A stretch of 63,843 bases of DNA, the filler included, from Asterionella formosa (taxonomy: Eukaryota): the NCBI GenBank assembly GCA_002256025.1. It is 5 parts of 5 records of this genome, joined end to end, with 100 filler letters (N's around TTAATTAATTAA, not from the genome) between each part and the next. Parts side by side here need not be neighbours in the genome. Positions count along the whole stretch, not along the records: positions 25,601 to 38,282 come from NKIB01007279.1; 4 more parts are not named here. The stretch is one strand, 5' to 3'. The position numbers and the translations under genes are program-made. Positions 9,555-44,203 of this stretch are shown here, in pieces (the first letter of the stretch is position 1; each line of letters begins with the position of its first letter). The notes under the pieces were generated by a model. The model saw only the letters and a list, made by a program, of their open reading frames with translations. It did not search any database and was not told the origin of the DNA.

Positions 9555-10998
9555 TCATGATGCCGGGTTGTAAACAATCGTAAAAGTACCCATAGAAAAC
9601 TGTTTAAAGTACCCGCCTACAATCCAATCACCTGCGAACCAATGTACAAATGGCAAGACGACCAAAACATTCAAAGTTGAAACAACAATCCTAGGTAGAT
9701 TCTTGGCCATCCACATGACAGGAGGCAAATGCCCAATTGGTTTTTCCAACAGCATAGTCAGACCACACCACAAGAAAAACATAGTTACCTTCAAACGAAG
9801 GTGGTCAAAGCAATCAATACAGTTTCCATAACTATCATAATCATGTACCGATTTGAAAAAAAGAATCGTCCAGCAAAGGTCGTGGAGCAAGCCAGATGCC
9901 AGGAAGCTCACTAGAATAGCCACAACTTTTGAGTATCCCAAGACTAACGCAGGTTTGTACGCACCTCGTTTCAAGGTATGATGAACTACCATGTTCCACC
10001 TGTATCCCCAAAAGTCAGAGGGTGATCGAGATGTGAAGAGAGGGTTCCGAAAAGTGGTGGCTGTCTTGTAGCCTTGTAGTTGGTTGCCCAAGGCTCCAAC
10101 ATTAAATGCAAGGCTCAGAACAAAAAACAACGTAACTGGAACAAACGACGAAGCGCAATTAAAGAGACAATATTTTCAAAGATGGGTATCATTCTATTGT
10201 GTACTTACTCGCATAAATGTAGTTATTCATCAATTGTCCTGGCTTTAGCAAGTCCAAACTCAAATGGTAGTCCTCCAATACTACATCGGAGGGAAACGGT
10301 TTATAATCAAATTGAAAGAGCGTCGACAACAGTGGAGACAATATTAGCATTTGAATAGTAATCTTCCAAAGATGCTGTAGAAGCTCCCTGGATGTAATCT
10401 TGATTCTTTCTCTACTCTTTTCATCCCACATAAAATCAACAACACTTGAATAGTAAATCAAATAGTTGGTTAGGGAGTCCTCTACGCAAACGGGTGATGT
10501 CCCATGCATGGCTTCAATACAGCGGAAGGTGACGTTGCAGGGCAGGGTTGTCAGGGACATGCGAAGAGCTCGATTGGTTAGTCCGAGATAGTTGATTAAT
10601 GGATGGGGCAGTTGCACTACCGATGGAATGATCACACCATAGCCAAGGAAAAATATCCATTGGGCGCCTCTATTTTTGATGATGACGGAATAAATAATGA
10701 CCGCGTAGATGCTAAGGAATGCAACTTGGATGATTAGGAGCTAAGTTGGATAGAATTGAAGGCAAAAGGGTGCAGCGATGAGGAACATGATTTAGAATGT
10801 GTCTGTCCAATACGCAATATGCTGACATCAAACGCTTACATAAGCCAACTGATACCAAAAAAGCATTCGAGGGGAATAGAAATCAAAACTGCCATCAAAC
10901 CCAGGAATCGATAAGCCTTTGATGAAGGGATCGCGATCGTCTATGACGAGTTTCTCATCAAAGAGCGAAGGTACATAGTTCATCAGGGCGCCTTGCAT
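9555..10998 (-). CDS. MBOAT family / wax-synthase-like membrane-bound O-acyltransferase (3 exons: 10998-10840, 10740-10209, 10135-9555)
   Basis: Two GT-AG introns keep the frame. Multiple TM segments. Motifs FRNPLFTSRSPSDFWGYRWN and SFLASGLLHD (catalytic His) are typical of MBOAT_2/wax synthase. Confidence 0.88.
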
Positions 10999-23984: not shown

Positions 23985-25085
23985 TCATTGAGTATTCCAA
24001 CCCACTACTTCCTTAATCAACGCTGGCACAATCAATATCGCAAACAATGGGTTCCTCATCCAGAAATCTCCAACACGAAAATGAAACAAACTAGCCCCTA
24101 TTGATACTGATGTACCGTTGTTGTAATCAACACGATGCCATGTCCACGTGGGTAAATAAAGAGCATCCCCTGCATGTGTTGTAAGGGTGATAGCCTCATA
24201 CCTTCCTTGTTGTAGTGCATTACTTTCCATGTTACTGTACACAAAGGCCCTGCCATCGGCTGCCAGAGAAGGACGTAATTTCCACCATTGCGTAGGATCT
24301 ATCAGCGTCCATACTTTAGTTCCTTCCAATTGGACTGCAATGTTCGCAATGGGTTCACAGTGCAACTCTGTTTTGACCACCACTTGAGAGGATGAGGGGT
24401 GATGGCCGCCAATGAATAATGGGACTGTTGTTAACCTAGTGGTAGTCAAGGAAAATGGAGTAAAGTAGTTTCCAAACAAAGGGGTCAAGATAGAAGTAGG
24501 GGCTACTTCTTTCAGTAGTTCTGGATATCGTTCCAAAAGCAACTGGGTAGCTATTTTGTGAGGGACTCCTTTGGTAATGTTCAAGAGTATCTCAGATAGT
24601 GGTGCAGTCGCATCAGGAGACAGAGCCTTTGGCAAAGCGGAATTTGTAAAGTACGGAATGGTCATGGATTCTTGAAGCAGTCCACGGAGGGAAAGACGGC
24701 GAGTCTGAGAGGAAAGGTCTTCTTGTGACCACAAATTCTTCAAGAGTAAAGGTCGGCGACGCCAGTCGTTGCCATGCTGATATTCAATAGCCTTTGATAG
24801 CTCCTCAGAGGATAGATACAGAGACACGTCAACGGTTGGTGTGTTGAGCAGTGAATGTGGCTTTGCCGCTGATTGTGTGTTCTCCTCTCGTTCCCATCGG
24901 TTCCAAGCAGCGCGAGTCAAGGTGTTATGTACTGAAGTCATCGGTATCCATTGCGCAACGGACCATAGCAGAGCATCTGCAATTGAGGCATTTGTGTGTA
25001 TCACCCATAGCGATACGTAAGCAGTTGCAACAGAGCAGCATGTGAGAGCTAGTGCCTTAACAGCGACAGCTACCGGGATCTGCAT
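23985..25085 (-). CDS. JmjC / cupin-like 2OG-Fe(II) oxygenase domain protein
   Basis: TELHCEPIANIAVQLEGTKVWTLIDP (HxE) and GDALYLPTWTWHRVDY (distal His) match the JmjC/Cupin_8 pattern. Probable start MQIPV at 25085. Hydrophobic N- and C-terminal segments. Confidence 0.85.
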   Translation of the reverse strand: MQIPVAVAVKALALTCCSVATAYVSLWVIHTNASIADALLWSVAQWIPMTSVHNTLTRAAWNRWEREENTQSAAKPHSLLNTPTVDVSLYLSSEELSKAIEYQHGNDWRRRPLLLKNLWSQEDLSSQTRRLSLRGLLQESMTIPYFTNSALPKALSPDATAPLSEILLNITKGVPHKIATQLLLERYPELLKEVAPTSILTPLFGNYFTPFSLTTTRLTTVPLFIGGHHPSSSQVVVKTELHCEPIANIAVQLEGTKVWTLIDPTQWWKLRPSLAADGRAFVYSNMESNALQQGRYEAITLTTHAGDALYLPTWTWHRVDYNNGTSVSIGASLFHFRVGDFWMRNPLFAILIVPALIKEVVGWNTQ

Positions 25086-25500
25086 TGTGTTGGTTCTCTG
25101 AGCTGATGATGATTTTGCACCATAACAAAATATGAGTGATATGAAATACAAAATTAAAATCTATGGAACATGTTCACACGTCTACTTATGGATTAAGTCT
25201 ATGGTTAGTCTACGTATGTACTTTTATTGCATTGCATTGCTTATTATATACTTGTTACCATCCATCCCGACCCTAACGGTACCCGGTACCAGTAAAAAAC
25301 TGCTGTGACCCACTAAAAAATATTTGGAACCGCTGTGACCCACTGAACAGGAGAAAAACACGGTTTGACCCTCCCAAATGCAGATTTGTTAATTTTAAAA
25401 CTTCGATCCCAATCTTGAGCATGTACGCTTTAAGGCTATGTCATTAGATATAAGTTTATAGCAATTGGTTTCTCCTAAAATATTGGTTGAAAAGTGCAAT

Positions 25501-25600: not shown

Positions 25601-26985
25601 TCTTCTTGCTCGTAAAGCTGTGTAGTCTGCTGCTCTAGTCCTCTGTTTCATGGTAGGCTCTAGTACTATCTCTATCCCTCCAGCTGGAGCGATCCAATCC
25701 TAGTAGGTAGTGTGTTGACCAAATGGTCAGTTTTGAAGATATGACCAAAACGAGGCAGTGTTGAGTCTGCTGCGATTATCTTGGTAACTTTGACTAGATA
25801 AGGTTTTCTATGTTTTGTAGAAAAAGATAAGAAAACTTGAGCAACAGTATTCTTGGAGAGGGTATAACATTTCAAGATGCAAGAAATTCCTCTATGTCAA
25901 TTTTCTAGTGAGTTTCATGTACACACTAAATGTCGTACTTCATATTTCTATGCAATCTTGAGTAGGGGGTTAAATATGGTCATAAATGCAACATTTATGT
26001 TTACATGGAACGTAATGCAATAGTTTATCATGTACACAATTACTACTATATACCGGTAGTAGAGTAAATGATAATCATGAGTGCCTCCCAAACCCCCAAG
26101 CTGTCGTTGTCTGATCTGAACGAAGATGGAGACATTTCTCTGGAGACAAGTGATCTAGTTTCCGTATTGCCTGTAGGGTAGTTATGCTGGCGAAATTGGC
26201 CAGTTTATATGCTACACGAAGGCCAAAGCATTGGTCAATGTGTACAACAGGGTCTCCAATAAATCAGTTCTCGACCATGCCTGGAAGCCTTCCGAAATCA
26301 AGAAAATCGTTCCTTGGGACAATACTTCTCCTTACCTGAATACTTCGAATCCGTTTTGGAGGCTGGGGTCTGTATCAAGGTCAAGATTGATCAGATTGCC
26401 GCACAGTTTGTTGCTCATGGTCCAAATCACGAATCGCTTCTCGATTATTTTCGTGATTGTCTGTATGCCACACAACTTGAGTGTACAGAAGTAAGCGATT
26501 GCGCATTAGCCGCAACGCTTGCTTCAGACGAGCAGAATAGTAGTAACAATTATTAGTAACACTACTGTGGAATTGAATACCTCTTTTTTGTAGTCATTTT
26601 ATAATATTATCGAAACATTATATTATATTGGTAGGTAATGTATTTTTCAATACATTCTACTCACCCCAATAAAGAATATCTAACTCTAGCCGCACTCAGA
26701 TAATTTAATACCTATTGTCCTGTTACTGATGTTATCATATACATATAATATTACTGGTACCAGGGTATACCGGTATGTGTGTTCCTTGTAACAACTGTTT
26801 ATGGCCACATTAAACATTTTACTATTGTTTAATGTCGCAATTGCTTAGAATGCAATTGCTTATTGATTTGTGTATACCAGTGTGGCCAGCGGTGCAGAAC
26901 CGCTGGTTATAGTGATTTTGAATTCCATGTTCCTGCTCACCCACATACAACATATTCATACAACATTTTTTACCAAAAACCGACA

Positions 26986-28031
26986 ATGGTTGTCTCAAAA
27001 AGCTTTACTGCCACCCGACTTTGGAAAGACATCTCCATTGTTGCAGTCCCACTTCGTGAAAACGCCAATTGTTTTGTTATGAAGTGGAAACTTCGATTGT
27101 TGCTAGATAAAAATAAGGAGAACTCGGACCGTAAGTTACTTCGCTTTTCCTACAAGGTCACCTCGGAACCAACGAGAATGTAGCTTTGGATGTGGATAAA
27201 CTACTTCCCATCATGTTGGAAAGAGTGAAGACAATCAGGTCGTTATCAGTGATCAAAAAAATGTTCGGAAAGGAGCAAGGTGGGATGGCATGTACTAGTC
27301 ATTACACCTCGCAAACGTGAAGCGGCTATGAAGTTCTTCAAAGATGATTCCTGGCCCTCATTCAAATGTTGCCGCATCGATGATCTCCGCTTCATTCTTG
27401 AAAAGATTGCTGAAGCCATGAAAGCTGTGTCTTCTATCATGGAAGATGAAAATGTTGTCAATGGTCATTCCCGGTTCTGTCATGCTGCCCCCATTTGCAG
27501 CAGGTAATGCAACCAATGTCAGCAAAGATATGCCACATACCTGTACATTATTGCACACTAATGACAATTTGTCAACGGTTCATCAAGAGCCACATTTTGA
27601 CTACCAGCATACAGAACTGGTAATCAATGATGTTGACATGTGCCTTCCTTGGGGATTGGATATGTCCCTTGGTTCTGGTGGGTTCTCCATAAATGTATGG
27701 GATGGAGAGTCATTCGGATGTAACTTTGACTTAGATCGAAAAGGTAAAGCAGCGCGCAGAGAATCAACATGCGATGTTACTTCGCATTCCTTTCAAATAC
27801 ATATTTTTAACGAGGGGTGATACAGTTCATGCAGGTGCTATGGACAATCACCTCAACAATGGAGCTTTGAGACTTCATATGTACTTGTTGCCTGGTTCCA
27901 CTCCTGAGAAAAAGTCAGTTGCGATCAGGAAACAAGCCGGAAATGCCATCAAGACAAAGGCATATGGAAAGAATTGTATCCCTCCATCTCTAGTTTCATT
28001 TTTGCTTGTTTCTTATGGAAAAGGATGGTAA
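26986..28031 (+). pseudogene. 2OG-Fe(II) dioxygenase-like gene (PhyH-like DSBH fold), frameshifted; copy A
   Basis: ORF pieces 27446-27820 and 27774-28031 give HQEPHFDY (HxD), LPWG, RGDTVHAG (distal His) and LRLHMYL (2OG-binding Arg). Homologous to 38590-39402. The 5' boundary is uncertain. Confidence 0.65.
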
Positions 28032-28140
28032 ATTTATATTTAATAATCATTGGTTAATAGTAAGTTGTTTAATTAGTAAATCAGTACCAGTTGCATTACA
28101 ATCGAGAGAAAGCGTTGTCAAGATATCAAGACAGGAAATA

Positions 28141-28700
28141 CCTTCTTGAGAGCATCTCCAATTCAATTGGCGTCATCAACAGCAATTGAATTGGCATTGA
28201 CGTGAATTCAATTGCCTCAAAAATAAATTCAAGTCAGTCAATCCAGTATTGATCATGAGGGGGTAATGACCTTCGCATCATCATCACCAATTGAATTGGC
28301 ATTGAGATCAAGTGTAGTGATGACAGTATCGACTTTGAAGGCCTGTGTTGATATTGACCTGGATGGGGTGGTAATGGCCTTTGCATCAGCATCACCAATT
28401 GAATTGGCATTGAGATCAAGTGTAGTCACGACAGTATCGACCTTGAAGACCTTTGTCGACGGCCTCGGCGCCAACAAGACGAATAGAATTAAAATCGAAA
28501 GCAACTGTAGTCAATTCAGCATTGACCTTGACAGCCTATACAATAGCCTGGCGCCGACAACATCAATTGATTTCTTTGGTACATCAAGTTTCGTCGCAAC
28601 GCATGCCGTTTTTACGCAGTACCGGTATTTCGATTTGAATAACAACACCGGTCTATCACGCTCTTTTTCGCACAGAGCGAATCCATCAGCCGACATGGCT
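28141..28700 (-). pseudogene. Ribonuclease-inhibitor/NLRC3-like leucine-rich repeat gene fragment
   Basis: Repeats FKVDTVVTTLDLNANSIGDADAKAI and FKVDTVITTLDLNANSIGDDDAKVI (LxLxxNxIGDxGAxAL-like), plus degenerate flanking repeats with frameshifts. Confidence 0.7.
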
Positions 28701-28986
28701 GTACTTATGTTTGAATAGCAAAAAGGATGTCCCGTTATGGGTTTCGATACCGGTATCCGCATTGAGATTTGTCGTCGTGGGTAAATTGCGTGGAAATACT
28801 ACAGAGCATTTTCTACACATGCAGCGACATAAAACAATAGCAAAACAATAGCAAGGCGTGTTACCGTTATCAATTTATTTACTAGCGATATACCGGTACC
28901 CACATTAATACGCCGCCAAGCAAGGAATGTTGGTGTTGATATAGAGGAAAAAACAATATATTAACTTAAATAAACAACGCTCCTCC

Positions 28987-30203
28987 ATGTTGAGACGAAA
29001 CTTGTTTACATCCCGACCCGGTGGTTGGAAAACCACTGGGATGGAAGATATCTCAGAAGAAAGAGAAGAAGTGGCTGACAGTCACAGTCATAGTCATAGT
29101 GGCAGTGATAGTCTGACAGTTCTGGTATCGAAAAACAGCCTCAATTTGAAGAGAGTAACGAGGATGACTTCAACAACTGTGATATCGAAGAAATCGAAGG
29201 TTTAATGGGAACTGTCACACCAGAAGAGCCTGGTATCTTGGAAAGCGAGGTTATTTTAGCACTTGATGACGGTGTTCTCGTCAATCCACCAAATGAAAAA
29301 AAAGTCGAGGTATGGGTGAATAATTATTTTTCTATGGATGTCAAGACCAGGGAGGTTGAAGGTATCCTTTGTGATTTGGGACAACCGAATTTTGGAGGTG
29401 GCGGAAGTCTCATGTGGTTAGCAAAAGATCGTCCATACTTTTTAGAGCTGATGGCATTAGAGTTACAAAGAAAAGATGCACAATTTTTTCATTCTTGTAA
29501 GTGTCCCTTTGTAATTTGGGAGTTATTCAATACCAAAACAAATTTGACCACAATTGAGATTGGTGACTTAAAACACACACACACCATAATGTTGTCAAGG
29601 ATGGCATAAGAAAACTTATTCACAAATACTATCAGTCTGTTAATTACTTCCCCGAATACAGTGAACATGAGACCACCACGTTACATTGCTGAGGCTAGGG
29701 CAAAAGGAATTCCTGTTGATGAAAAATCGAAAAAGTGCATTAAACGACAACTCACTTACTACGCAATAAACCGGTTGGGCTAACAAGGTCAAGGCAATAA
29801 CTGGGGAGGAATCATCGCTGCTGTCCTTGAATCGTACAAGAAGGAAAATCTCTTTAATTTCACGCAACATTCGATGTACCTACTTGGCATAGGCTGTTGA
29901 CGAGAAGACAACTCTTTGGTAGCTGTACTAACAACCAAGAATTTGTTGCTGAATGCGTACAGACAGCAATTCTGGGACAATCCAATTTTCGTTTCTGCTG
30001 ATTCATATTACAGACTGACACAAGAAGGAAACAGCGTTTTTCTAGTGATTACAACCAACTGGGCTCAACAAAAGAAAACTATTGCGTATAGAGTGATAAG
30101 CCATGAACACCACAAAGCGCAAAGATTCATATTTGCGTCGATTAAATCTGCCTTGGAAGAGCTCATTAGATATAGGAAAACGAATGATATTCCTATTTAT
30201 TAA
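28987..30203 (+). pseudogene. MULE-like transposase N-terminal half (WRKY/GCM1-type Zn DNA-binding domain + first catalytic Asp), copy A
   Basis: SCKCP...KHTH zinc motif, then VSADSYYRLTQEGNSVFLVITTN...IAYRVISHEHHKAQRFIF. This matches MULE strands 1-3 (DxTYxL..GxP..V...IAYA...E). Ends RKTNDIPIY* at 30203. Several frameshifts. Confidence 0.7.
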
Positions 30204-30245
30204 TGACAACTATCATAGTCACAAATAGTTCTTTTCTAAATATAG

Positions 30246-31516
30246 TCATCCTTTAATATCTAAGTTACCTCCACGTTTCGCATGTTTGATTTGTCCAGAA
30301 CCTTTATTTTTAATACAAGGCTTCCACGGTCAAATGCAAAAGCACATGCATGTTTACACCATGTGTTTGCTAAATGTGTGTGACTATGGCAAGATATGAG
30401 GCCTTCATTGCCCATGGCTTTCAAGCTATTAGCTAATCATAATGGGTCCCAATCCACATGCTCCCAAAATTCCTAAAAAGTTAGTTAGAGCAACATCATC
30501 ATTTTCAATCTTGGACACAATAGGTTCAATAAGGTGAAACCTGCGGGTGAGGGAAAGGACATCATCAAATGTGTGGTTAGCAGAATACTGTTCAGGATTT
30601 TGGAGAAGGCGCTTGCACTCATCATGCATTTTGTTCTTCTTTATCAATTGCATAACAGTTAGTGCAGTAACTGATTCTGTGTTCCCGATATAAAGATATC
30701 TCTTTCGAGATTGGGATAGTTGGCTTTGCTGTGACAATGCAGTTGCAGTATTCTGGGACTGCATTGTTTTCATAGAGGGCATAATATATAGGTCCACAAA
30801 TGACGATGTCACAATCAACAATGAACCCTCTCCGATTCTAATTGCATACACTTGAAATCAAATGTCACTGTGAGAAATGTAGCTTCTCCATTTTGGCTTT
30901 TCTCAAGAAGCTTATGAATAGACTTGTAGAAATTTATCGAGTGTACCGATGAGTGTAAAGTGGAGCAAAATGATAGATCCCCTTTGCAACAATCCTCTAA
31001 CATGTAAGACATGTTATGAATGAAGTTACCCGTTAAAGGCTTCCTGTGGTCGAAGAATGATTTATCACCACTGTTGATGCCCTCTGAATTGTTGTTGTGT
31101 GCAGGCAAACCACCACGAAGCAGATTGGAACTATTCAATTCAATTCGGGTGTGAATGGTGGGACCCCATTGTTTCAACCATGCAGTTGCAACTTCCTTTT
31201 CCTTGCATGTGTTGATCCACTCGAAAATCATCAGATCGCAAAGGATTAGAACCAGCTGTATCCCGGGACTTCTTTTATACGCCTCAAAGTCTTCACCCAT
31301 TCTCTTCTTGTTTTTGTCGTATTTCTTGAACTTTCCTCTATGCTTCTTTACCAGTGCATTCCAGGCATGATAAGAGCACATACCAAATGTAAATTCGGCA
31401 TTATAATCAGTCATTGTCTGTATGATGAATGAAGGTGAGTCCGGTTCCCAGCACCAAGGAGTGTCGCCAAGGGGAAGAGGAAAATTGTCAGTGACCAACA
31501 GATACCAATGCCACAT
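30246..31516 (-). pseudogene. MULE-like transposase C-terminal half (second Asp, CxxH, Glu, SWIM-like finger), copy A
   Basis: QTMTDY, FGMCSYHAW (CxxH), WLKQWG, HNNNSEGIN (NNxxE) and C-terminal SCHSHTHLANTWCKHACAF (SWIM-like). Ends GGNLDIKG* at 30246, tail-to-tail with the N-half. Confidence 0.72.
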
Positions 31517-31607
31517 TGTTGTACGACTATGTGATATTGCGTACCCTCAATCACCTTTAGATACCGCTACTATATCAAAGTCACTCCCTAACCCTATTCC
31601 TATCATG

Positions 31608-32090
31608 GGCATGATTCAAATTCAAATCAATCATACACGTAGTACATTTAAATACAAATATCTGTGCAACATACCGGTGTATAGGTGTCACTATGCTGGA
31701 CATGATTTGAATTCAAATTAATCGTATGCATACTGGAATGTACGTTTACATGCAAAATATGTGTGCTACATATATACCGGTAGGTATCCCGATGATGGCA
31801 TGATTAAAATTCAAATCAATCGTGTACATACGTTTTTATACAAAAATATCTGTGTAACATATTGGTACTACCAGGTACCAGGGTACCAGGTAGTACAATA
31901 GATGATACAATAGACAGTAGTATCTGGTACCTGGTACCAGTACTCACACACAAATAGAATCGAACATGCATATGCATATATGCATATCTATCATGTCTTC
32001 TAAACTATAGATTGCTACAGCAGATATGTACATATACCCATGTACGACTGTCCTACTCATGCAACACAAATGATTCAAATTCAGATTGAG
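31608..32090. repeat. Scattered ~25-bp repeats (GGCATGATTCAAATTCAAATCAATC) upstream of the MULE C-half
   Basis: Copies near 31608, 31798 and 32070, with a related variant near 31700. Confidence 0.55.
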
Positions 32091-32319
32091 CGGTTGTTGA
32101 TGTTGCAGCCAGTGATGGTATACATACAAAAAAAACTTGTATCGATATATATATATACATACATACAATATTCTACAGGAAAATAAATACTATTCATATT
32201 AGATGATAAATCGAATTTATGTGATCATATGATTGCCATTACAAGATGCATCACACGAATTAGATGTTTTCTATTTGCAGAGGCCCTAGAGGGCCTTAGA
32301 CCTGTTTGTTATCTGCCTC

Positions 32320-32427
32320 ACCCCCTGGAACCCAAGGGACTACATAAAGAAAGAAGCAAGTGGAGACTGCGGGAATCAAACCTGCCACCTCGGAAGGTAG
32401 GCTACCTGACGAACAAGTTTTTTCCCC
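32320..32427 (-). mobile_element. Putative tRNA-derived SINE, copy 2
   Basis: Minus strand GGGGAA...GCAGGTTTGATTCCCGCAGTCTCCA (T-arm/B-box-like), followed by TGTAGTCCCTTGGGTTCCAGGGGGT; homologous to 19651-19752. Confidence 0.55.
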
Positions 32428-32955
32428 AAGCTAACAATGTAAATGTTTATATAAAGCAATACATACTAGCTAAATACTAGCGGCAATAGCAAGCGCACAA
32501 GCAAGAAGAATGGCTAAAATTGTTTCTATATTACATGTTATTGAATGGAGCCAATGCAACTGTTACAATTCGCGTTCACCAAACAGGTTGCTGCAGTTTA
32601 AATAGGCCTCAACTTTGTTCATGCTCCAAAATTTGAGCAAACGAGAGCAATTATTAATTCTAGTGCTATCATTGGAAACTGTGTTTGTTTGCTTCTGTCT
32701 GCTTCCCAAACCCACCATGCTTTAATTTTGCAAATTACAAATATATATCTATACTTCTTATGATCTGTATATTCAATATTATTTGATGTACAAAGAAGGC
32801 CCTGTAGAGCATGCCAGTATATGCTCCTACACATTGAAATTTCATACATATATATAGCAGGCACATATATGTAGCTATATGGATCTTTTTGCCAGCTGAC
32901 TAAGCAATCATGCTCAACACATCAATCCCACTCAACTACCATACACATAGTACCT

Positions 32956-33180
32956 ATAGGGTTAGGGTTAAATAGATTATATCAGAACTCTATCAGGAGA
33001 GAACTTGACAAACACCTATTGAATACTTTTGTGTCAACCTAGGAGAACAAGTTACACACAAGGAGGATTAACTAATAAGCTCATATATTCAACAAATGCT
33101 ACTACTTCTAGTTAGATACTTCACATTGAATTCAAAAAGAGTCAAATCAGAATTAACAGTTTCAATGTATTTTCAAGTTT
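32956..33180 (+). repeat. Second-locus copy of the 12802-13590 dispersed repeat
   Basis: TATAGGGTTAG...GAGAACAAGTTACACACAAGG...CATATATTCAACAAAT.CTACTACTTCTAGTTAGATACTTCACA matches ~13027-13195. Confidence 0.8.
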
Positions 33181-33229
33181 TAATCCAACTGTTATTGGCC
33201 AGAGGGAGTACCAGGTACCAGGTAATACA

Positions 33230-34275
33230 CTATGGTGGCAGACGCAGAGCTCCATCCAATCGAATAACTTCTCCATTCAGCATCGGATTTTTAATAATAC
33301 TAACCACCAACTCACCATATTCATCAGGCTTTCCCAATCGCGAGGGAAGTGGAACCATTCGACCAAGGTCATCCTTGACTTTTTGGGGCAAACCGTCCAG
33401 CAAGGGAGTTTGAAACAAACCAGGTGCCTTTGGTCACCAACAATAGTGGAGAAGAATAGCAATGATGCAAGCAAAAATAAGGTTAGAAGATACACTACTA
33501 GATACTTGACAAAATTGTTCTAAAGAGGGCGCAATAACCATCTCCGTTCTTCTTGTCTGATCTGCCTGATGAGACTTACAATGGTCATGACTCTAATTCC
33601 AAACGGAGCCAGGTCCCGAGCCATAGGAAGGGTCATGGCCACAATGGCTCCCTTCGAAGCAGCATATGCAACTTGCCCAACCTGCCCTTCGTATGCTGCC
33701 ACACTCGCCGTGTTGATGATGCACCCACGTACCCCTTCTTCATCAACATCTCGCCTACACATTCGTTCAGCAGCCAGCCTCGCCACATTAAAGCTGCCAA
33801 CTGCATTGATCATCATGGTGTTCCTAAATATGTCCAAGGGGTGGGAAGTTATACTTCCTTCTCTCTTTCTGGAAAGTGTTTTTTTGGCCGAAGCTATTCC
33901 AGCGCAATTGACTAAAGCATTTACTGTTTCCGCAACGATTACAGTCAGTGTTGCGCTCGGTTACAACAACTGGCAATCAACCATCAAACACAGCTTACAT
34001 GGCTCGCCAAACTCCTTCTCAACTAGATCCAAGGCTTTACTAATCTGATCTTCATTCATGACATCCATATCTGCAAATGCTAACACTATTCCTTCGTGAA
34101 GGTTCAACTTCGCGGCATCTGCACAACAAGTCACCGCCAGTCTGTGGAAGTGTTCTTGTTGATGCGGAAGGTCTGCCACTATAACTCGCGCGCCGTGCCG
34201 AACCAGACACGCCGCAGTTGCTGCTCCGAGGCCCGAGGCACCACCGGAAACCAAGGAAACTATGTGAGACAACAT
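33230..34275 (-). CDS. HSD17B10: 3-hydroxyacyl-CoA dehydrogenase type 2 (HSD17B10/scully-like SDR); exons 34275-33999, 33923-33580, 33427-33230
   Basis: Motifs [63 protein letters not shown] and [15 protein letters not shown]. Two GT-AG introns restore the frame. Confidence 0.92.
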
Positions 34276-34616
34276 GCCGCTGCAGTAAGGCGGGAGGCAC
34301 ACAAATCGAAAATGCCACGAATGTACCCGATAAATAATTAACTCTCACCGCAACCTTTTATTGCCACATCTGTATTTTGCAGCTATTATTATGTACTCCC
34401 ACTGCTACTTAACTACCGGTACTCCCTCAGCTGGACGGGCGAAAACAATTGGGTCAATTCTTAAAATTTATCCTTTGAGCTCCTACGATTTTCTCAGCAT
34501 CAATTGCCCTACTATAGAGCGCCATCACATAAGCTACAGATCCATGTATAATACGATTGGTATACGATATATGCATGTAGTAAATGTGAAATTGGCAACT
34601 ACCGGTTCCTGATAAA

Positions 34617-36557
34617 AGGTGCTGAAAACACGTCATCATGGCTGGAAAAGAGGAATCTATCTGAAAGGAATCTTAGCCTATCTCTCCCCCACCTTGGTCG
34701 TTTTTCGATATTTCTTGTGATGTATTATACAATATATGCATTTATAACAATTCATAAATTACCTTGCCGGCATTTTACTGAGAATCAAATTCATATATTA
34801 CCTTGCCGGCGTTTTACTTAGAATCAAATTCATATATTACCTTGCCGGCATTCCATTCCACGATTTTCAGCAAATACGGTACCATGTAGTTGTCTCAAAT
34901 GCATAAAAAGTAAATGCTCAATGCTGGACCACTGCCACATTGCTTTGTTCACCATGATCATGGTTCATCCTCTCATTTCCCCCAATGAAGACACACGTGA
35001 TTCTTGTAATGAGGACGCTCAGCAACAGCACCAATGACCCTCAGTCCAGTCGGGTATGTTGATGTGTCAGATCGCTCGGGTGTGGCTTTTGATAGCAAAA
35101 TAGACGTCAAGCATTGTGGCAGTGAGAACAAGAAGATGATTGGAGATTTCATTGGTGATGAGCCTTTGCATAAGATCAGTGAACAGGTGCTTGAAGATAC
35201 CAATAATGACAACGGCGGCGATGTTGAGATTGATGGCGCTACTGTACAACTGAAAGATCCCAATGGTACAGTTGTCATGCCAACCATGACTGACTGCAAT
35301 GGTAACTTCAGGTTGAATGCTTCTCCACGCATGTACACAATTGTCAAACAGACACCTCCTGGATTCGTCAATGTTGGCAGCAGCCCAATTTCTGTAAATA
35401 CAAGAGCTGCAAATGTTTTGAACATTCGTTTCGATGACCAGCACCCCATCAGTGCTCCAAGTGTGAGTGGCTGCCTCTCCAGTTACTTTTTGCTTGGATC
35501 AATTTCCAGAAGTGTCAAGGAAGATACCGACAACAATGATAGTGAAGACACTAACTTGGTGGGTGTAACTGTTATTCTATAGGGTCCAAGTGGGAATGGC
35601 CCTATTCTATATACTACTGTTACTGACTTTAATGGCGACTTTGTGTTTGTGAATTTGCCCAATGGCAATTATTTTGTTAAGAAGATCATCATCCCAGCAT
35701 TTGCACCACTGCATCGTCCTTGTGACCCAACATGGAGCAGACCACTTCAGAAACATCTACTCCTTCCTTTTTTACTAACGTGATAGCATCATGATGTCTG
35801 TCTTGAATGAATCCATCACCCTCATTTTAAGCTGTTTATTATCCTCTGATTCCTCTGTATATCTCAATGCTGTCTTTAGTGAAGCTAAATATTTATTTCA
35901 AGCAAGTTTACCAGACTTTCCGTTGCATCTTATCTTGACATTCATATCATAACAGAAAAATTAAAGCAACTTGTTCGATTTTACAGATATCTGGTGCTAG
36001 CTAGCTAGCTAGCTACGTGTCAGGCTACATAGTACAGTAGCTACGAGGAGTCGGATTTGATATTGCGGAGACAAACCGATACATACAGGCGTTTCCACTT
36101 ATACCGGTGTTCTAGACTCTACACTATATACTGTTACCAGGTACTGGGTTATCTGTTATTACATCAAATCTGATGAAACCCAAGTCCCTGGTACCGTAGG
36201 TAAAATCTGCTGGATCGACGTGACTTGATGGATGTTAGAGATGTATCTGAAGCTAAAGGTAGTAGAGTACGATACCCAGTTTCAGGGGACCACAGTTTGA
36301 ACCACAGTTTACAAAGCGTCGGGCATGTGTATTGAGGCGGCTAGGCGCAGGTACGAAACTACTCTGTACCAAGACCAGTGTTTGAACCAGTATATACAGA
36401 ATTGTGCGTGCGTATTAGACGGGCAGGCGCAGGTCTGAACACTCATCTTCGCATTGTTTGATCAAAATTCCGTTCCCTCATGTGCTTCCACCTGGAATCT
36501 TTTTTTCTACGTGGAAAATATACTAATGACCTAGGTGATGACGTGTTTTCAGCACCT
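34617..36557. mobile_element. Putative non-autonomous TIR element (22-bp perfect inverted repeats) carrying a gene fragment
   Basis: AGGTGCTGAAAACACGTCATCA (34617-34638) is the exact reverse complement of TGATGACGTGTTTTCAGCACCT (36536-36557). Internal ~39-bp tandem repeats at 34758-34852. No clear TSD. Confidence 0.6.
35034..35700 (+). pseudogene. SdrD-B / Cna-B-like (adhesin stalk) repeat fragment
   Basis: Repeats ISEQVLEDTNNDNGGDVEIDGATVQLKDPNGTVV..TMTDCNGNF and ISRSVKEDTDNNDSEDTNLVGVTVIL*GPSG...TTVTDFNGDFVFVNLPNGNY match the SdrD_B pattern. In-frame stop at 35580. Confidence 0.7.
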
Positions 36558-36630
36558 ATTATAACGATCCTATCAAAAAGGTTTTGGGCTTTTTCGATTT
36601 TCACCTTTAGTGATCTATCTCAATAATTAA

Positions 36631-37424
36631 GGTTGCTGCATTTGAAACCCTAGGCAAAAATCTAAATATTGCTTATCGCTTTCTCAGTCTCCTTCTCCTC
36701 TGCTCTTCTTTTCATCCTAGTCATATCGTCCAGTGCTTCCATTCCCAGCTTAAAGCGTCCAGCCGCCACAAGAAGTCCTGCTGTATACCTTTTATTTTGC
36801 GCGATTGCCCATAGCGCCGATTCCTTCCATTGGCGACCAATCTGATCGAGATTGATGCAATTCCTTGAATCCTCTTTGTTCCTGAATTCAATAACTTTGT
36901 CAAGAAGGGTGCCGGTGATACCTTACTTTAGATTCAGTCCTGCTGGTATTATGGTCGAGATAGCGGCATTCAATTCTGTCTGGGTTGCTGAAACTGCTGT
37001 CAGTTGTATTTCATCATGAAGAAGTGTGGTCAGAGTATGTATATTTACGGCACCACCGGTAAATTGCGGGGAAAACTAACTAATTCCCAAATAGGAATCA
37101 TAATATTTCATTTATAAAAGTTGTCTAATAGAAATATTTTACTTTTTTATAATGGTTTTGTCATCCTGTGTCACAGTACCGGTAGACGGGTGGTTGACAA
37201 CATTTAGGATTTCCCAAAAACCGATAGCATCGTTTTTGCGTCAGTTGACCAAAACCAAAACCAATCCAATAATAAGTTTTTGGGATTTGGTTTGGGTCAA
37301 CGGTTAGCAAGCAACGGCCTTATACATATCTATTTTATACGTGAAAATTAGTACTATTTGATTAGTCTGAATCAATATTGTTTTATTAACCCTACCTCGA
37401 GCTAGGGGTTCAAATGCAGCAACC
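36631..37424. mobile_element. MITE/non-autonomous DNA transposon with 23-bp TIRs flanked by TTAA
   Basis: GGTTGCTGCATTTGAAACCCTAG (36631-36653) versus CTAGGGGTTCAAATGCAGCAACC (37402-37424). TTAA at 36627-36630 and 37425-37428. A related TIR starts again at 37431. Confidence 0.75.
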
Positions 37425-37628
37425 TTAAAAGGTTGCTGCATTTCAACCCTAGATTAGAGATAAGGTTTAAAAAATAATATTTAGTCAGAGTAGTCAAACA
37501 CACACTTCTTACGAGTAAAATATAAATGTATTTCACTAAACAGATGAGCTTTCACCCATGTACACCCTTTCCATATGCTTAGATACAGTGATTGATCAAT
37601 GTAGGGGTATAGGTCAAATCAAGGATCT

Positions 37629-37754
37629 GGCGAGAAACTGCACAAAGGAACTTCGGGTAGTATTTAAACTATGCTATTAACACTAGGAGATTCGTGGCAA
37701 ATCACTGTATTTAGCATAGTAAAAAACCGAAGCTCCTTTCTGCAGTTTCTCGCC
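37629..37754. repeat. Imperfect ~45-bp inverted repeat (hairpin)
   Basis: GGCGAGAAACTGCACAAAGGAACTTCGG...ACTATGCTA versus TAGCATAGT...CCGAAGCTCCTTTCTGCAGTTTCTCGCC. Confidence 0.8.
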
Positions 37755-38155
37755 GAAAGTTAACTTCTGAGGCTATATGAAGGTTATTTATGTTTTTAAA
37801 TCTCCTTCAGAACCAGCCAACATTGAGCAATCGTCGTCCAAAAGTCTCCAAAACATCGGAATCAGAACCACTGATCGCGGAAATGTCATCATCGTGATTC
37901 AATTTTTCGTCGTACAATCTCCTGTACGAAAAATTCCATTGTAAGGGCCCGCATCAGTATCATCTAAGCCGCGTATTACGTGAAGTGACCATCACGTAAA
38001 TAAGCCTAGTTGATTTTGAATGGATCACATGAATTAGTTGAATACATCAAAATGCTTACTTGAATATATCTATATATTATCTGAGTACATCACGTTAATT
38101 ATTTGATCAGAGTATCATGCATGCATTCCTGATCATCACTATATTACGTGATCAC

Positions 38156-38248
38156 CTTCACATAATTATTTGAAATACTTCACATAATTATTTGAAATAC
38201 TTCACATAATTATTTGAAATACTTCACATAATTATTTGAAATACTTCA
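38156..38248. repeat. 22-bp minisatellite x4 (CTTCACATAATTATTTGAAATA)
   Basis: Four exact tandem units plus a partial unit near the scaffold end. Confidence 0.92.
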
Positions 38249-38282
38249 ATTAATTCTGTAATTCAGTTCACATTGCCTTAAA

Positions 38283-38382: not shown

Positions 38383-38589
38383 TTGGCTTTGAAGAAGAGG
38401 ATGAGAAACTTGGCGATAGTAGTTGGCGGCCATTCAAATATTTCACAAAATAAAAAGATGTTGTCTTATAAATAGTAATTAATAGCGTTCAATTACATAT
38501 AAAACATTCCTTATCTGAACATTCAATCACAAATTTCATAAATTAGTCCATACTTCCTTTATGTTATCGACGGAATTGAACAAGAGCGT

Positions 38590-39402
38590 GTGTCTTTCCT
38601 TAATTTATCTTTCCTTCCAGATGAGTTTTTTGGAATGGAAGAAAAAGACAATCCATTTTTACATGTGGCGAAATCTTTTTGTACTTCTGCGAAAATCTAT
38701 AACCCTCCTATTCGTTTGTTGAAACAAATATTCAAAACAACTGCAACATATAAAGCACTTGCAAATACCATGGAAGGAAAAGCCATGTTAGTGTTTCCTT
38801 TCAAGAATTATACTGACAGCTTAAAATATTCAAAGCTGGATCTGCCAAATGTGAAAACATTTGGCATATGATAAAGTGCTTGTTAATACCAGGTTCCGAT
38901 GATGTCTCCGTCAATAGCAACAGAGTTATACCACACACTGCCATTATGTTGTTCACCAATTCTGGAAAGAATGGCTACCCAAAACCTCAGAAACCACACC
39001 AAGAATATACACCAACAGAATGCGAAAGGGAAACTCCTATGCCTTGGGGAATGATAACGTCCTTGTCTTTAGGAGGGAACTGTTTAAATATATTGGATAA
39101 TTATGCGGATGAGAAGCATGCAATACATTTGTCCATACCATTCAAATTCGTCTTTCTCATGCGTGGAGAAATATTCCATGGAGGAGCTTTGGATAATAGT
39201 TTAAAAAATGATGCTTAACGGATTCATTTCTATTTGTCGCCAGCTACAAAGCAAAGAAATGGACACTCTGTCGCCAAACCGAAACGACAGGATAACAACA
39301 TACGCACTGATGGATCAATATGTGGTCGTTACCAGAAATTCTCGTCTTTCTTATTGCAACATGACTGAACAGGGTGGTCTAACTTATGATCTAATTTTAT
39401 AA
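38590..39402 (+). pseudogene. 2OG-Fe(II) dioxygenase-like gene, disrupted; copy B
   Basis: IPGS...IPHT...PQKPHQEY (HxE)...MPWG...IPFKFVFLMRGEIFHGGALDNSLKNDA*RIHFYL aligns by eye with copy A (IPGS...MPHT...HQEPHFDY...LPWG...IPFKYIFLTRGDTVHAGAMDNHLNNGALRLHMYL). Confidence 0.65.
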
Positions 39403-39497
39403 AAACCAATCCAAAAAAAGTTTTTGTGTTTTGTTTGGGTCAACGGTCAGTAGCGGCCGTAAAGTAACCGTCAAAAACGCAAGAAATTCATCAATGG

Positions 39498-39726
39498 CAT
39501 GAGGAATACCGCAATACTGGTAGGGCAAACCTACTGTTCGAGAGTACCGACAAAGTATATATAGTATTCTAACATGAGGAATGCCGCAATACTGGTAGTA
39601 GGGCCAACCTACCGTTCGAGAGTGCCGACAAAGTATATATAGTATTCTAACATGAGGAATACCGCAATACTGGTAGAGCAAACCTACTGTTCGAGAGTAC
39701 TACCGACAAAGTATACAGTATTCTAA
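39498..39726. repeat. ~75-78-bp tandem repeat x3
   Basis: CATGAGGAATACCGCAATACTGGTAG...ACCTACTGTTCGAGAGTACCGACAAAGTATA...GTATTCTAA occurs three times. Confidence 0.9.
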
Positions 39727-39825
39727 TATGAATGTTTAGTTGGTACCAATGCATATCATCACGAAACTTAGTTGCAAGTGAAGATGAGGTCATTTCATTC
39801 GATGACTGATGGTATTGGTTGACAA

Positions 39826-41790
39826 ATGTTATCAGGTGCTACACGAAGGATCTATAACTGGTGTCCACTATGTGGCTACAAAGTGAGGAAAAATCGGAAA
39901 CCATCTAGATCGCATCATAATATTTGCTCGAATCGTTCTTTCGTATCATTTGGTTGGTGTCGTGTTTGTTATCAAGAACACCAGCTAGATCCCTCGATCG
40001 TTGCATCGTCGGAATTCTGTTTCAAAACTCCCTCTGAACACCTTATCACGAGCAGACAAACATTGGAAGGCATTCAGCAACCAGCCTGTGATGTTTCTTT
40101 CCCCGAAGGAAATAATAGTTTCCAAGATGATGATGATATTATCTCGACAGAGGACCAAGAAGAGACTATACAGTTTGAATCGATTTCCGGAACAACATAC
40201 AGTATTTTGAAAACAATGAACAAAGAAAGACTTTTATTAGACCAATCAAAGCATATTCCTCTGCCATACAACTTGTCCATTCCCAGTCGAGAAACAGTAG
40301 CAATTGACCCAATCAAGTTAGAGTTAATGTTATTTATTAACAAAAGAATTCTTGCCACCATAATACTTTGATCATATAATGAATTGGGCTTTCAAGGCTC
40401 GTGATGATGGCTATTTCCAGAAAAAGCAACGTGCACCATCCCATTAGACATTTTAAAAATTTTGAATATATCGTTTCCTCCATTTGTTGGTAAAACCATG
40501 GCAAAGTGAACTTAATTTAGGATTTCAACTACCCTGTACTCCGCATTATTTCGATCCTGTTGGGTTACTGGGCTCCATGCTACGAGATCCTGACGTGATG
40601 CAACATTTTGTGCACTACCCACAAGAGAAATTCACCTTTTGCGGAAAACGCATCTACGATAAAACTACTTCTGCAGAATAGTTTCACTCAGCTTTTAATG
40701 AATCCCACGCTTCAGAGGATGGGAAACTAAAAGCCGGCCACCTGTTTGTAGGAATTGGATTTTCAGTGATGGATCCGCAATTGACAAAATGCAGAAACAT
40801 TATGAACATCCATTGTTAATAGCAATGTTCAATTTGTCTATCGAGTGTAGGAAAAAGGTGGAAGCATGGCAATTGGTGTCGTGTTACCTGACGTAGAAGT
40901 TAGTGACTTAGAAAAAATTCAAATATATCAGATTTGAGTAAGGAACGGTTAGCTCAATATCATCGGTCTACGGGATTTTTATTGGAACCATTTCGTGATC
41001 CAAACAAGTGTTGTGAATTGTTTGTTCATGGATTGGTTAAAACGAAAGGTTTCTTTCAAATTGGCATGATCATTGGTGATACAGATGAACACAACAAAAT
41101 ATGCGGTTTTCGCGGAGGGAATGGAAAATACAGACTACATACCTGTAGAGACTGTACACTTACTACTCCGAACCCTGATAATCCATACGCAAAATGCGAA
41201 CCACGCCTTGTGAGCTACACTAAACCATATCTGGAATGGGTTTTGAAAAACATTCATCATTCAGATGGAAAGTTACCAAGTTTACCTGATTCCTTTGATA
41301 TAAAGCAAAGTCGCAGATATGCAACCAAAGATGAATGGTGTCGACAAATATCACAAAACACGATTATTCCAGCCCTTTTCTACCCCTATTTCGGTGGTGA
41401 TAAGCAGGGAGTCCATGCTGCTACCCCTTTCGAAACTCTACACCAATTTCTCATAGGAATGTTGCCATACATTCTAGAATCTCTGTACAATTACAGAGCA
41501 GTCACTGAAGTTTGGAAACAATTTTTGAACAAACGAACATATTCCAGATGTACCTGAACCAAAAAAAATAGAAAAGGAGTTATCCAAGAAGAAAAAACAT
41601 GAAGAGAGTGGTGGGGAGGAACTACCAATTACTGATGATGGTAGACGTTCTGAACAACAACGGTATCTACTAAATTGGCAACAATCTAGACCGAAGTTGG
41701 AAAATCAAAATCGTAATTTATTTTCAAAAATATCTTTTGAAATGATTGCGAGATTCATCAATGCGCATCTAGAAAGACAAAGTGATCGTT
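39826..41790 (+). pseudogene. Plavaka-like transposase with N-terminal Cys/His zinc-finger region, truncated and frameshifted
   Basis: Ordered motifs HYFDPVGLLGSMLRDP, RIY, SDGSAIDK..HPL..MFNLSIECRK..AW..LP, QYHRSTGFLLEP, MIIGDTDEHNKICG, CRDC, PFETLHQFLIG and RQSDR follow the Plavaka-family layout. N-terminal CPLC...HHNIC and CRVC. Confidence 0.65.
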
Positions 41791-42579
41791 AGAGGTGGCG
41801 GGTCTCTTTCCTGGTTATCAAAGAATCGCCCATATGTCAGAGGTGATGGCATCCGAGTAACGAAAAAGATATGTACTTTTTATCATTCCTGTAAATGCCC
41901 AATTCTAATTCGGGAATTGTTCAATACAAAAACCAATTTGACAACTATTGAAATTGGGTATTTAAAACATAATACTCACAACCATGTCAAAGATGGGCTT
42001 TCGCGACATAACAACAAATACTACCAGTCAGTGTTGATAACTTTGCCAAGTAAATTGAACATGAAACCTGCCCGTTTTGTTGCTGATCCCAGAGCGAAAG
42101 GAGTTCCTGTTAACAAAGCCTTGAAGAAGTCCCTCAAACTTCATCCTACTCGTCTTTGGAATAAGTTGAATGGATTAGTCAATGGCGAAGCGAATAACTT
42201 GGGTGGAATCTCTTCTCTACTTGAATCTTAAAAGAGGGAATGTATTGTCAACTTTACTGAACATTCGAGGTTCCTACTTGGCATAGATTGTCAGCCAGAG
42301 GATGACTCTTTGGTGGCTGTGTTATCGACAGAGAATTTGTTGCTGAATGCGTACAGACAGAGATTCTGGGGAAATCTAATCTTCCTTGCTGCTGATGCAT
42401 CATATAGACTTATGCAAGAGGGAAATGGTGCATTTCCGGTGATCAAAACAAAGGAAAGCAATCGCCTATGGAGTGATTAGTCATGAACACCACAAGGCAC
42501 AAAACTAATATTTTCGTCTATTGAGCCATCATTGGAAGAACTGGTTAGGTGTAGGAAAACTGATAATATTCCAATCTAA
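41790..42579 (+). pseudogene. MULE-like transposase N-terminal half, copy B (5'-truncated)
   Basis: GGGSLSWLSKNRPY, CTFYHSCKCP...HNH, NLLLNAYRQ, AADASYRLMQEGNG and IAYGVISHEHHKAQ. Ends RKTDNIPI* at 42579, the same endpoint as copy A. Confidence 0.7.
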
Positions 42580-42671
42580 AAACACAGCAGATTAGATATA
42601 GGTAAACTAAAATATTCGCAAAGAATTACAACTATAATAAAATGGAACTTTCCGTAGTATGATTCAAAAAA

Positions 42672-44203
42672 TTATTCATGAATATCCAAGTTTCCTCCAC
42701 GTTTTGAATGTTTGTTCCGTCCGGAACTTCTATTCTTAATACTTGGCTTTGGATGAATTGTCTTATGAAATGTGGTAATTATCTCCCTATCAAATGCAAA
42801 TGCACATGCTTGTTTACACCACGCATTTGCTAAATACGTGTTCCAATGGCGACATACAAGGCCTTCATGGCCCATCTTTTTCAAGTTTTTTAAATGTAAA
42901 TTGGACCCAATCCACACTTTCCCAAAACTCCTAAAATGCACGTTTGTGAGGGCAATATCATCAGTGGCGTTTTTCGATACCATATGTTCAATAATATGAA
43001 ACCTGCATGTGGGAGATAGTACATCATCAAATGTGTGGTTAGCACAACAGTGTTTGGGATTCCAGAGAAGTTGCTTGTATTCATCATGCATGTTGTTTCG
43101 CTTCATCATATGCATGACAGTAGCAGCGCTAATAGATTCCGTCATACCCATGTAATGAAGCCTTTGTCGAGATTGTGAGAGCTGTGATGCTTGACTGTAC
43201 TGGGACAATGCAACAGCATTTTCGGACTGTATGGTTGCATTGCATACATTATGTTTAGGTCAACAAATGATGATGTGGCTGGCGATCAACAACGAACCCT
43301 CTGCTAATCCTAATTGCCTCACACTTGAAATCAAACATAACAGCGAGAAATGTAGCATCTCCTTTTCGGCTATTCTCAAGGACCTTATAAATGGACTTGT
43401 AGATATTGATGGAGGGTACTGATGAGTGCAAAGTGGAGCAAAACTCTAAGTCACCCTTGGATCTGTCCTTCAACATGTAGGACATGATGTGGAGAAAATT
43501 TGCTGTTAAAGGTTTCCTGTGATCGAAGAAAGATTTGTCTCCGCTATTTGTTCCTTCTGAATTATTGTTGTATGCAGGTAATCCACCTCGAAGTAAATTA
43601 GAATCGGTCAGTATAACTCTCGTATTAATGGTTGGACCCCAATCTTTCAGCCATGCAGTTGCGACTTTCTTTTCTTTGTAAGTGTTGATCCATTTAAAAA
43701 TCATTAACTCCCAACGGAAAGGAGGAAATAAATGAATCCAGGGACTTCTCTTATAAGCTTCGAAGTCCTCATCCATTCTCTCCTTGTACTTGTCATATTT
43801 CTTGAACTGCCCTCTATTCTTCTTTACCCAGGCGTTCCAGGCATGATATGAACACATTCCAAACTTAAATTCAGCAGTTGGCCAAACCTTTTTGACAGCT
43901 GTGCGACAGGCTAAAGTATAATCTGCCATTGTTTGTATAACATTCAAAGGTGGTTCCGGTTCCTAGCTCCATGGACTGTCACCAATGGGAATGAGGAAAA
44001 AGTCAGCTTGTGCTAGTGTTTGTGCCTGCAGGTGACAAGGTTGTGAGTTCTATGTTTCTATCCTCAACCATTTCCTTGTCCGAACTGGAATCACTCTCAT
44101 CGGAAGAAATTTCTACAGAGTTATTTTCAGATGACTCCTCCTCCAAGGAGCCTTGATCTGAGGAGCTCGAAGAACTAGATATTAACAAAAGAATTCTTCC
44201 CAT
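42672..44203 (-). pseudogene. MULE-like transposase C-terminal half, copy B, with acidic Ser-rich leader
   Basis: QTMADYTLACRTAVKKVWP..FGMCSYHAW, WLKDWG, YNNNSEGTN and VCRHWNTYLANAWCKQACAF. Ends GGNLDIHE* at 42672. Upstream Ser/Glu-rich ORF 44203-44003 may be its N-terminus. Confidence 0.72.

Follow-up and report, generated by a model that had tools for sequence, protein, structure and literature searches.

Does a broken gene found near transposase remnants in a diatom genome represent the former passenger of a mobile element, and if so, which element carried it and what protein did it encode? The question is raised by a locus at positions 26986..28031 of a 63,843-nucleotide stretch of the Asterionella formosa assembly GCA_002256025.1. 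This stretch, hereafter the window, comprises five chunks of about 12.7 kb each with blocks of N between them, and two of the chunks, scaffold 3 (25601-38282) and scaffold 4 (38383-51063), carry related copies of the gene. The explanation that we favour, and consider probable as a whole with real room for error, is that a passenger gene of DNA transposons in algae left the two open reading frames (ORFs) behind as decayed copies. A PhyH-like Fe(II)/2-oxoglutarate (2OG) oxygenase domain is the most likely structure for the C-terminal ~200 residues of the ~457-503-residue protein of the intact gene, and the gene would ride with Plavaka-type (EnSpm-like) transposons, with a shorter and distant branch of about 300 residues riding beside Helitron and Rep genes.

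The gene, its family and the two window copies

The copy on scaffold 3 (26986..28031, plus strand) was delimited from the ORF list, the sequence itself, and tblastn and blastn comparisons with L001, a metagenome contig with an intact family member that serves as the reference for residue numbering. The copy on scaffold 4 (38542..39377, plus strand), delimited from the ORF list and tblastn, corresponds to L001 residues ~179-480. In tblastn, the scaffold-3 piece 27735-28028 aligned with 39105-39377 over 97 residues at 41% identity (E 3e-16) and the piece 27422-27817 aligned with 38880-39098 over 76 residues at 33% identity (E 6e-7); with protein identity of just 33-41%, no match between the two genes was found at the DNA level. 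The motifs Q.PH.D/EY ... PW ... RGD.VH.G ... R.H are common to both copies. On the plus strand of scaffold 3, the HxD motif (His-Phe-Asp) at 27593..27601 corresponds to H334 and D336, which are invariant in an alignment of 11 sequences (A4); the distal His of 'RGDTVHAG' (27828-30) corresponds to the invariant H421, which hhalign places on the His of the PhyH 'Hgs..N.s' strand; and 'RLH' at 27870-78, with Arg at 27870-72 and His at 27876-78, corresponds to the nearly invariant R435 and the invariant H437. On the plus strand of scaffold 4, an HxE motif (HQE, 38997-39005) has Glu in place of the Asp, the distal His lies in 'RGEIFHGG' (39177-79), and 'RIH' sits immediately past an in-frame stop. 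An initial annotation of the window had described homologous ORFs with HxD/E...H(A/G)G...RxH motifs, placed upstream of and co-oriented with the N-half of a MULE transposase on both scaffolds. The alignments and motif positions confirm the homology, and both copies indeed lie on the plus strand, 1.36 kb (scaffold 3) and 2.4 kb (scaffold 4) upstream of a common 2-kb MULE-like segment, whose first ORFs are likewise on the plus strand.

Both window copies are pseudogenes and encode no enzyme themselves. The scaffold-3 copy is legible in five frame-hopping pieces (26986-27180, 27186-27296, 27253-27504, 27422-27817, and 27735-28028). The intact L001 protein aligned with it in tblastn over residues 29-182 at 36%, 288-407 at 61%, and 399-487 at 82% identity, and its DNA identity to L001, L002, L003, and L004 was 65-88% (blastn). 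A deletion junction with a frame change at 27447..27449 (plus strand) marks the loss of about 315 nucleotides (~105 codons, L001 residues ~183-287), as the blastn matches skip from 4268 to 4584 in L001 and from 350 to 664 in L003; besides this deletion, at least three further frame changes are present. Contigs of three sequencing runs were compared with the window: X1, a run labelled 'algae metagenome' that probably gave the assembly; X24, a polyA RNA library from the same sample; and X21, a metatranscriptome. Nine X1 contigs continue past 27449 into other sequence, the consensus of which reads as the undeleted segment, and in 23 X1 contigs an additional T follows 27144, the point from which the window copy is out of frame. 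The scaffold-4 copy, which spans only the part of the protein given above, runs from 38542-38868 through one frame shift near 38817-38868 into 38817-39215, meets an in-frame TAA at 39216-39218, and continues to about 39377. Its nearest database relative is P0001, with 82% identity (E 4e-54).

The family is very small, rare, and unannotated. A phmmer search of 1.84 billion representatives with the 133-residue scaffold-4 piece returned 12 matches at E ≤ 1e-3, mostly fragments; further word-indexed searches added 6, 5, and 3 more proteins, and a metagenome scan added 8 loci. Viral contigs and prokaryote genomes yielded no relatives, and neither did phage records searched by tblastn at E ≤ 10. The intact gene of L001 is a 488-codon open frame encoding 457 residues from the first Met, and intact members of this long form, of about 457-503 residues, also include P0013, P0015, and P0017. 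A short form of ~284-354 residues is represented by P0012, P0019, L006, and L007, and hhalign confirms a genuine relationship between the two branches (probability 98%, E 7.9e-14). The N-terminal ~280 residues of the long form have no recognisable relatives. In the 11 sequences of alignment A4, which share 18-75% identity, 17 columns are invariant, including Q331, P333, H334, D336, Y337, P352, W353, G417, D418, H421, and H437, and R416 and R435 are nearly so.

Some peculiarities of the metagenome contigs were also noted. In L002 (157-1629), the gene, 98% identical to that of L001, runs upstream into a long open frame of unrelated sequence, with a Thr codon where L001 has its Met, which would mean either a fusion or another insertion context. 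The last 46 nucleotides of the L001 gene together with the 36 nucleotides downstream (5145-5226) recur at the contig end (8471-8552) with 99% identity, and this 82-nucleotide direct repeat may be an assembly effect. L004 joins L001 position 5698 to 6423 and so does without 724 nucleotides, for which an intron, a deletion, or an artefact of assembly could account.

Mobile-element neighbours of the gene

In L001, the gene follows, in the same orientation and after a gap of 384 nucleotides, a Plavaka transposase ORF of 1006 residues (PF18759, E 1.2e-10, 41.6 bits against a cut-off of 26.3). Members of the short branch adjoin other elements. At the locus represented by L005 and L006, a Helitron-type ORF of 2056 residues with Helitron_like_N, PIF1, GIY-YIG, and Ulp1 domains lies 25 nucleotides from the gene, tail to tail; on L006, where it occupies 3899-10066 of the minus strand, it bears a GIY-YIG nuclease and a Ulp1 (C48) protease domain in addition to its Helitron domains. 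In L007, a Viral_Rep ORF (1572-2648, minus strand; PF02407, E 2.3e-8) lies 327 nucleotides from the gene in divergent orientation; this contig has a GC content of 36% and may be an integrated or a free Rep-encoding element.

Traces of Plavaka-type elements were also detected in the window. On scaffold 4, a remnant of a Plavaka/EnSpm-like transposase core (40907..41554, plus strand) lies 1.5 kb downstream of the gene on the same strand. It aligned with residues 433-562 of the L001 transposase (BLASTP E 1e-8, 25% identity), including the CxxC and E.LH stretches, and gave no Pfam match of its own. Beyond residue 562, the L001 transposase had no match anywhere in the window at E < 5, and the ORFs 39823-40368 and 41529-41789 did not align with it. 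On scaffold 3, the segment 26135..26316 (plus strand), just upstream of the gene, matched the spacer between the Plavaka transposase and the gene in L001 (3536-3710) with 91.8% identity in blastn; the Plavaka transposase itself is not there. Altogether, a transposase or Rep gene was found within 2.5 kb in all five contexts having at least 1.4 kb of flank on at least one side, namely L001, L005/L006, L007, scaffold 4, and scaffold 3, the last being counted by the spacer and the MULE-like segment, which bears out the initial proposal that the gene accompanies mobile elements. In addition, the DNA upstream of the gene differs between L001 and L002, the gene itself being 98% identical.

The X1 run shows that the sample from which the assembly probably came holds numerous diverged copies. 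At 25700-32000, 12,552 X1 contigs matched at 85% identity or more and just 2,657 at 99% or more, and variant letters inside the gene were each carried by 11-33 contigs. Therefore, given the Plavaka neighbour at 384 nucleotides, the Helitron and Rep neighbours, the scaffold-4 remnant, and the many diverged contigs, the status of the gene as transposon cargo is well supported, and its likely carrier is of the Plavaka type, not the MULE-like segment.

Several observations weigh against this reading. No terminal repeats were found in L001, and no terminal repeats or target-site duplications bound any element enclosing the gene. The gene order is not the same either, with the transposase first in L001 and the gene first on scaffold 4. 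Moreover, contig counts in a metagenome-labelled run do not equal copy numbers. Around the scaffold-3 gene, a 22-nucleotide inverted repeat was found at 26817-26838 and 28824-28845 (span 26817..28845), with 20 of 22 positions complementary; it occurs in the window at these two sites only, and none was expected from 100 shuffles. The two arms might be the termini of a small non-autonomous unit, which is unproven. 'ATACCGGTA' motifs recur near both of its arms and near 31770. A contig joint from 26759 to 31918 in X1 was not relied on, as it had only 21 letters on one side, at 85% likeness.

The MULE-like segment occupies 29392..31400 on scaffold 3 and 41789..43876 on scaffold 4, the two being 70.55% identical at the DNA level. 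On scaffold 3, putative N-half ORFs (29112-29609 and 29901-30203) are on the plus strand and putative C-half ORFs (30429-31546) on the minus strand. The regions 29112-31546 and 41773-43962 share this arrangement, and since the inverted ORF layout is alike on both scaffolds, it was evidently copied as such. The MULE domain PF10551 was matched by one ORF only (29901-30200; E 0.06, 14.2 bits against a cut-off of 27.6), with no match for the other ORFs, and hhalign comparison of the MULE-like ORFs with 23 bacterial IS256 transposases gave scores of 9.3-10.7, equal to those of the controls; the label also leans on the motifs D..Y, C..H, and NNSE, which we take to be typical of such transposases. 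The MULE homology on scaffold 4 begins at 41789, where the open frame 41529-41792, downstream of the Plavaka-like remnant, ends. The simplest reading is that the MULE-like segment is a separate repeat of younger age that either adjoins the older Plavaka-type remains or was inserted into them.

Between the gene and the MULE-like segment of scaffold 3, positions 28145-28500 contain repeat units of ~105-108 nucleotides, with 97-nucleotide copies 89% alike, whose minus strand reads 'LDLNANSIGD.DAKAI'; these resemble leucine-rich repeats. Summed X24 depth peaks sharply in this bin, at 12,123 against at most 443 elsewhere, and therefore an expressed gene family has this repeat too. Within the oxygenase-like gene, X24 and X21 contigs overlap some parts and other parts have no X24 cover, the overlap being no proof of transcription.

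Relation of the protein to Fe(II)/2OG oxygenases

The conserved residues of the family include the sequence pattern of a 2-His-1-carboxylate site, with H334, D336, and H421 invariant (n = 11) and HxE in the scaffold-4 copy, although this is a pattern match alone. The nearly invariant R435 follows H421 by 14 residues, in the place where the residue binding the C5-carboxylate of 2OG is expected, about 10-20 residues after the distal His. If the protein is such an oxygenase, H334, D336, and H421 would be its iron ligands and R435 the residue that holds 2OG.

To compare the family with known enzymes, calibration families were collected from bacterial genomes (42 PhyH, 34 AlkB-type, 25 TauD, 29 2OG-FeII_Oxy_3, and 25 SDR sequences), aligned, and run in hhalign; HalD, for which a single locus turned up, and the Cupin_1 loci were left aside. 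The family core matched PhyH with a score of 26.29 (E 0.0027, probability 11%), and the short and long branches alone matched it with scores of 28.88 and 20.96, respectively. For comparison, the three pairs of true 2OG families that include PhyH scored 23.65-24.26, AlkB-TauD scored 19.6, and the remaining two true pairs 9.9 and 11.9. The family core scored 12.6, 12.8, and 13.7 with AlkB, TauD, and 2OG-FeII_Oxy_3, respectively, and 10.7-16.2 with SDR and the reversed alignments of four control families; with the full-length family alignment, the same controls gave 10.45-16.59. Among 120 column shuffles of the family core compared with PhyH, the maximum was 17.9 and none reached the observed score. 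All three family-versus-PhyH alignments have one register, in which 'IP.K..FLMRGD.VH.G' lies on the PhyH strand 'Gd.l.f....Hgs..N.s', His on His. The part with HxD alone also had its best match at PhyH 'HqD', with a non-significant score of 13.7, where the five remaining targets scored 8.5-11.3. The two matches are therefore collinear; the consensus His and 'HqD' of PhyH are, we assume, its iron ligands. Thus the family behaves towards PhyH as genuine 2OG families do, which is supportive of a relationship and not proof of it.

Searches of the language-model Atlas with P0006 and with the C-terminal part of L001 pointed the same way, with neighbours in PhyH, 2OG-Fe(II) oxygenase, HalD, WelO5, and 2OG-FeII_Oxy_3 clusters at scores of 0.88-0.94. 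The TET/JBP domain (PF12851) was found in none of the 22 family members, and a search of bacterial genomes for TET/JBP sequences gave none in 807 (0/5, 0/401, and 0/401). Because PF12851 was missed and PhyH was matched, the protein appears not to be TET-like. The initial annotation, judging from motif spacing, had called it PhyH-like rather than TET-like and had proposed a comparison with TET/JBP, AlkB, and PhyH; its view is supported by the hhalign results, in which PhyH clearly exceeded AlkB and was the only family matched, as well as by the PhyH, HalD, and 2OG neighbours.

On the other side of the balance, 2OG families were matched by none of 22 members in Pfam, none of 11 in NCBIfam, and none of 11 in PHROGs. 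PhyH itself (PF05721) was found in none of the 22 even at E ≤ 10, and Pfam searches with the window pieces, with three members, and with all 22 gave scattered chance matches only. Profile searches of PDB sequences with the alignments A2, A5, and A4 likewise returned only chance matches. AlphaFold2 models of P0006 (18 alignment rows) and P0019 (22 rows) had a mean predicted local distance difference test score (pLDDT) of 43.6 and 40.7, which makes them unusable as evidence for or against a double-stranded beta-helix. The hhalign match is short (27-32 columns), has a probability of 11-16%, and concerns PhyH only. Finally, according to the tool's own figures, Atlas scores of 0.9 are also reached by 4-10% of shuffled proteins, and the neighbours are therefore leads. 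On this sequence evidence, the oxygenase fold is only moderately supported.

Elsewhere in the window, another chunk contains an intact ORF of 391 residues (23988-25160, minus strand) with Pfam matches to Cupin_8 (E 1.3e-13) and JmjC_2 (E 4.2e-5), an ordinary host gene for a JmjC-type oxygenase that is unrelated to the family described here. A chlorophyll-binding antenna gene is also present in the window.

Alternative explanations and known systems

The initial annotation had joined the gene and the MULE-like segment into one large composite transposon present on both scaffolds. Such an element would explain why the gene lies upstream of the same segment twice, at the distances given above and on the strand of its first ORFs. 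However, the two MULE-like segments are alike as DNA over 2.1 kb, whereas the two genes have no DNA match and share only 33-41% protein identity; therefore, segment and gene have different histories. The DNA between them is unrelated on the two scaffolds, and on scaffold 4 it holds the Plavaka-like remnant, that is, a trace of the kind of transposase that accompanies the intact gene. Furthermore, the segment adjoins the gene in none of the eight metagenome loci (blastn), and its assignment to MULE is weak in itself. This idea is consequently disfavoured, and we regard it as very unlikely. We think it equally improbable that the gene belongs to an ordinary host family that happens to reside in repeat-rich DNA, with transposases as coincidental neighbours. 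Intact members do exist (P0013, P0015, P0017, and the L001 ORF), and RNA-library (X24) and X21 contigs overlap parts of the gene, as noted above without proving its transcription. Against coincidence stand the transposase or Rep genes in every usable context, the dozens of variant X1 contigs over the gene, the frameshifted fragments that make up many of the database matches, and the different upstream DNA of L001 and L002 before nearly the same gene.

A different possibility accepts the mobile association and denies the enzyme: the protein could assist the transposon without being an enzyme, perhaps as a partner that binds DNA alongside the transposase, like TnpA in EnSpm elements, its conserved His, Asp, and Arg being structural or metal-binding. 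The position of the gene in L001, as a second ORF right behind the Plavaka transposase, would suit such a partner, as would the lack of a significant match to enzyme families in Pfam, NCBIfam, and PDB and the failure of the AlphaFold2 models to display the fold. Yet the same core adjoins unrelated elements, Helitrons and Rep-encoding ones, which would not share a partner specific to one transposase; the invariant residues follow the order and spacing of a 2-His-1-carboxylate site plus Arg; and the sole profile match falls on the iron-binding strand of PhyH. Taken together, these points make an accessory role unlikely, if slightly less so than the two preceding ideas, and we retain the reading of the gene as a Plavaka-borne passenger encoding a PhyH-like oxygenase.

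Under the favoured explanation, the enzyme would serve its element, for instance through oxidation of a mark on nucleic acid or chromatin that takes part in silencing; such an anti-silencing role is suggested by analogy only. One could go further and hypothesise that the family is a new PhyH-like Fe(II)/2OG branch, taken up in separate events by three or more kinds of algal elements (Plavaka, Helitrons, and Rep-encoding elements), which counters silencing by oxidising DNA, RNA, or chromatin marks and so represents a convergent, non-TET equivalent of the fungal TET/JBP enzymes; in this full form the proposal is rather doubtful. An oxygenase family that looks unrelated to TET/JBP and rides with Plavaka and Helitron elements in algae would mean that transposons have repeatedly come to carry oxidising enzymes. 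It would also supply new candidates for assays on methylated DNA or chromatin from organisms whose silencing of transposons by methylation is being investigated. What is of practical use here are the intact homologues (the L001 ORF, P0013, P0015, and P0017), not in the two dead copies of the window.

Compared with PhyH (PF05721), the family has the same HxD ... H ... R order and similar spacing, with 87 residues between the two His against ~90 in the PhyH profile; hhalign aligns the strand of the distal His and, weakly, the HxD, and the nearest named Atlas clusters are PhyH. In contrast to PhyH, it misses every Pfam threshold, has two residues from GD to His in 'GD.VH' against ~8 in the PhyH consensus of the alignment made here, and places the Arg 14 residues after the His against ~10 in that consensus. 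To our knowledge, the PhyH enzymes described so far act on small molecules or proteins and not on DNA.

The transposase next to the intact gene exceeds the Pfam cut-off for Plavaka (PF18759; CMCT/EnSpm-like clade), and the scaffold-4 remnant aligns over CxxC and E.LH, which are described as motifs of the clade in the text of Kojima 2025 (PMC12730594). In the literature searched, Plavaka elements are fungal, while those considered here are algal and known without defined termini or target duplications. Full-text searches for Plavaka together with diatoms or stramenopiles gave incidental mentions only, and those for a diatom DNA transposon with dioxygenase and MULE gave incidental matches or none.

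The closest known parallel is offered by fungi, whose Plavaka, Helitron, EnSpm, hAT, and other transposons have captured TET/JBP genes (Kojima 2025, PMC12730594, which cites Iyer et al. 2014), with escape from methylation-based silencing as the proposed benefit to the elements (Kojima 2025, PMC12730594). According to the text of the same paper, transposons with their own 2OG dioxygenase are documented so far in fungi only and with TET/JBP enzymes only; that text does not mention diatoms or stramenopiles, and its supplements may list non-fungal elements. The algal system differs from the fungal one in its host, in a protein that is not detectably TET/JBP (PF12851 in 0/22 members) and has PhyH as its sole profile match, in an extra N-terminal region of ~280 residues that belongs to no known family, and in an activity that is predicted only. 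It resembles the fungal elements, as far as they are described in that text, in the presence of a gene of the 2OG-oxygenase type beside transposases of several unrelated lineages, including Plavaka and Helitron, and in the existence of many copies, many of them decayed. Judging from the sequences compared here, the diatom gene thus appears to show the same layout as the fungal TET/JBP transposons, in another enzyme family and in another group of hosts.

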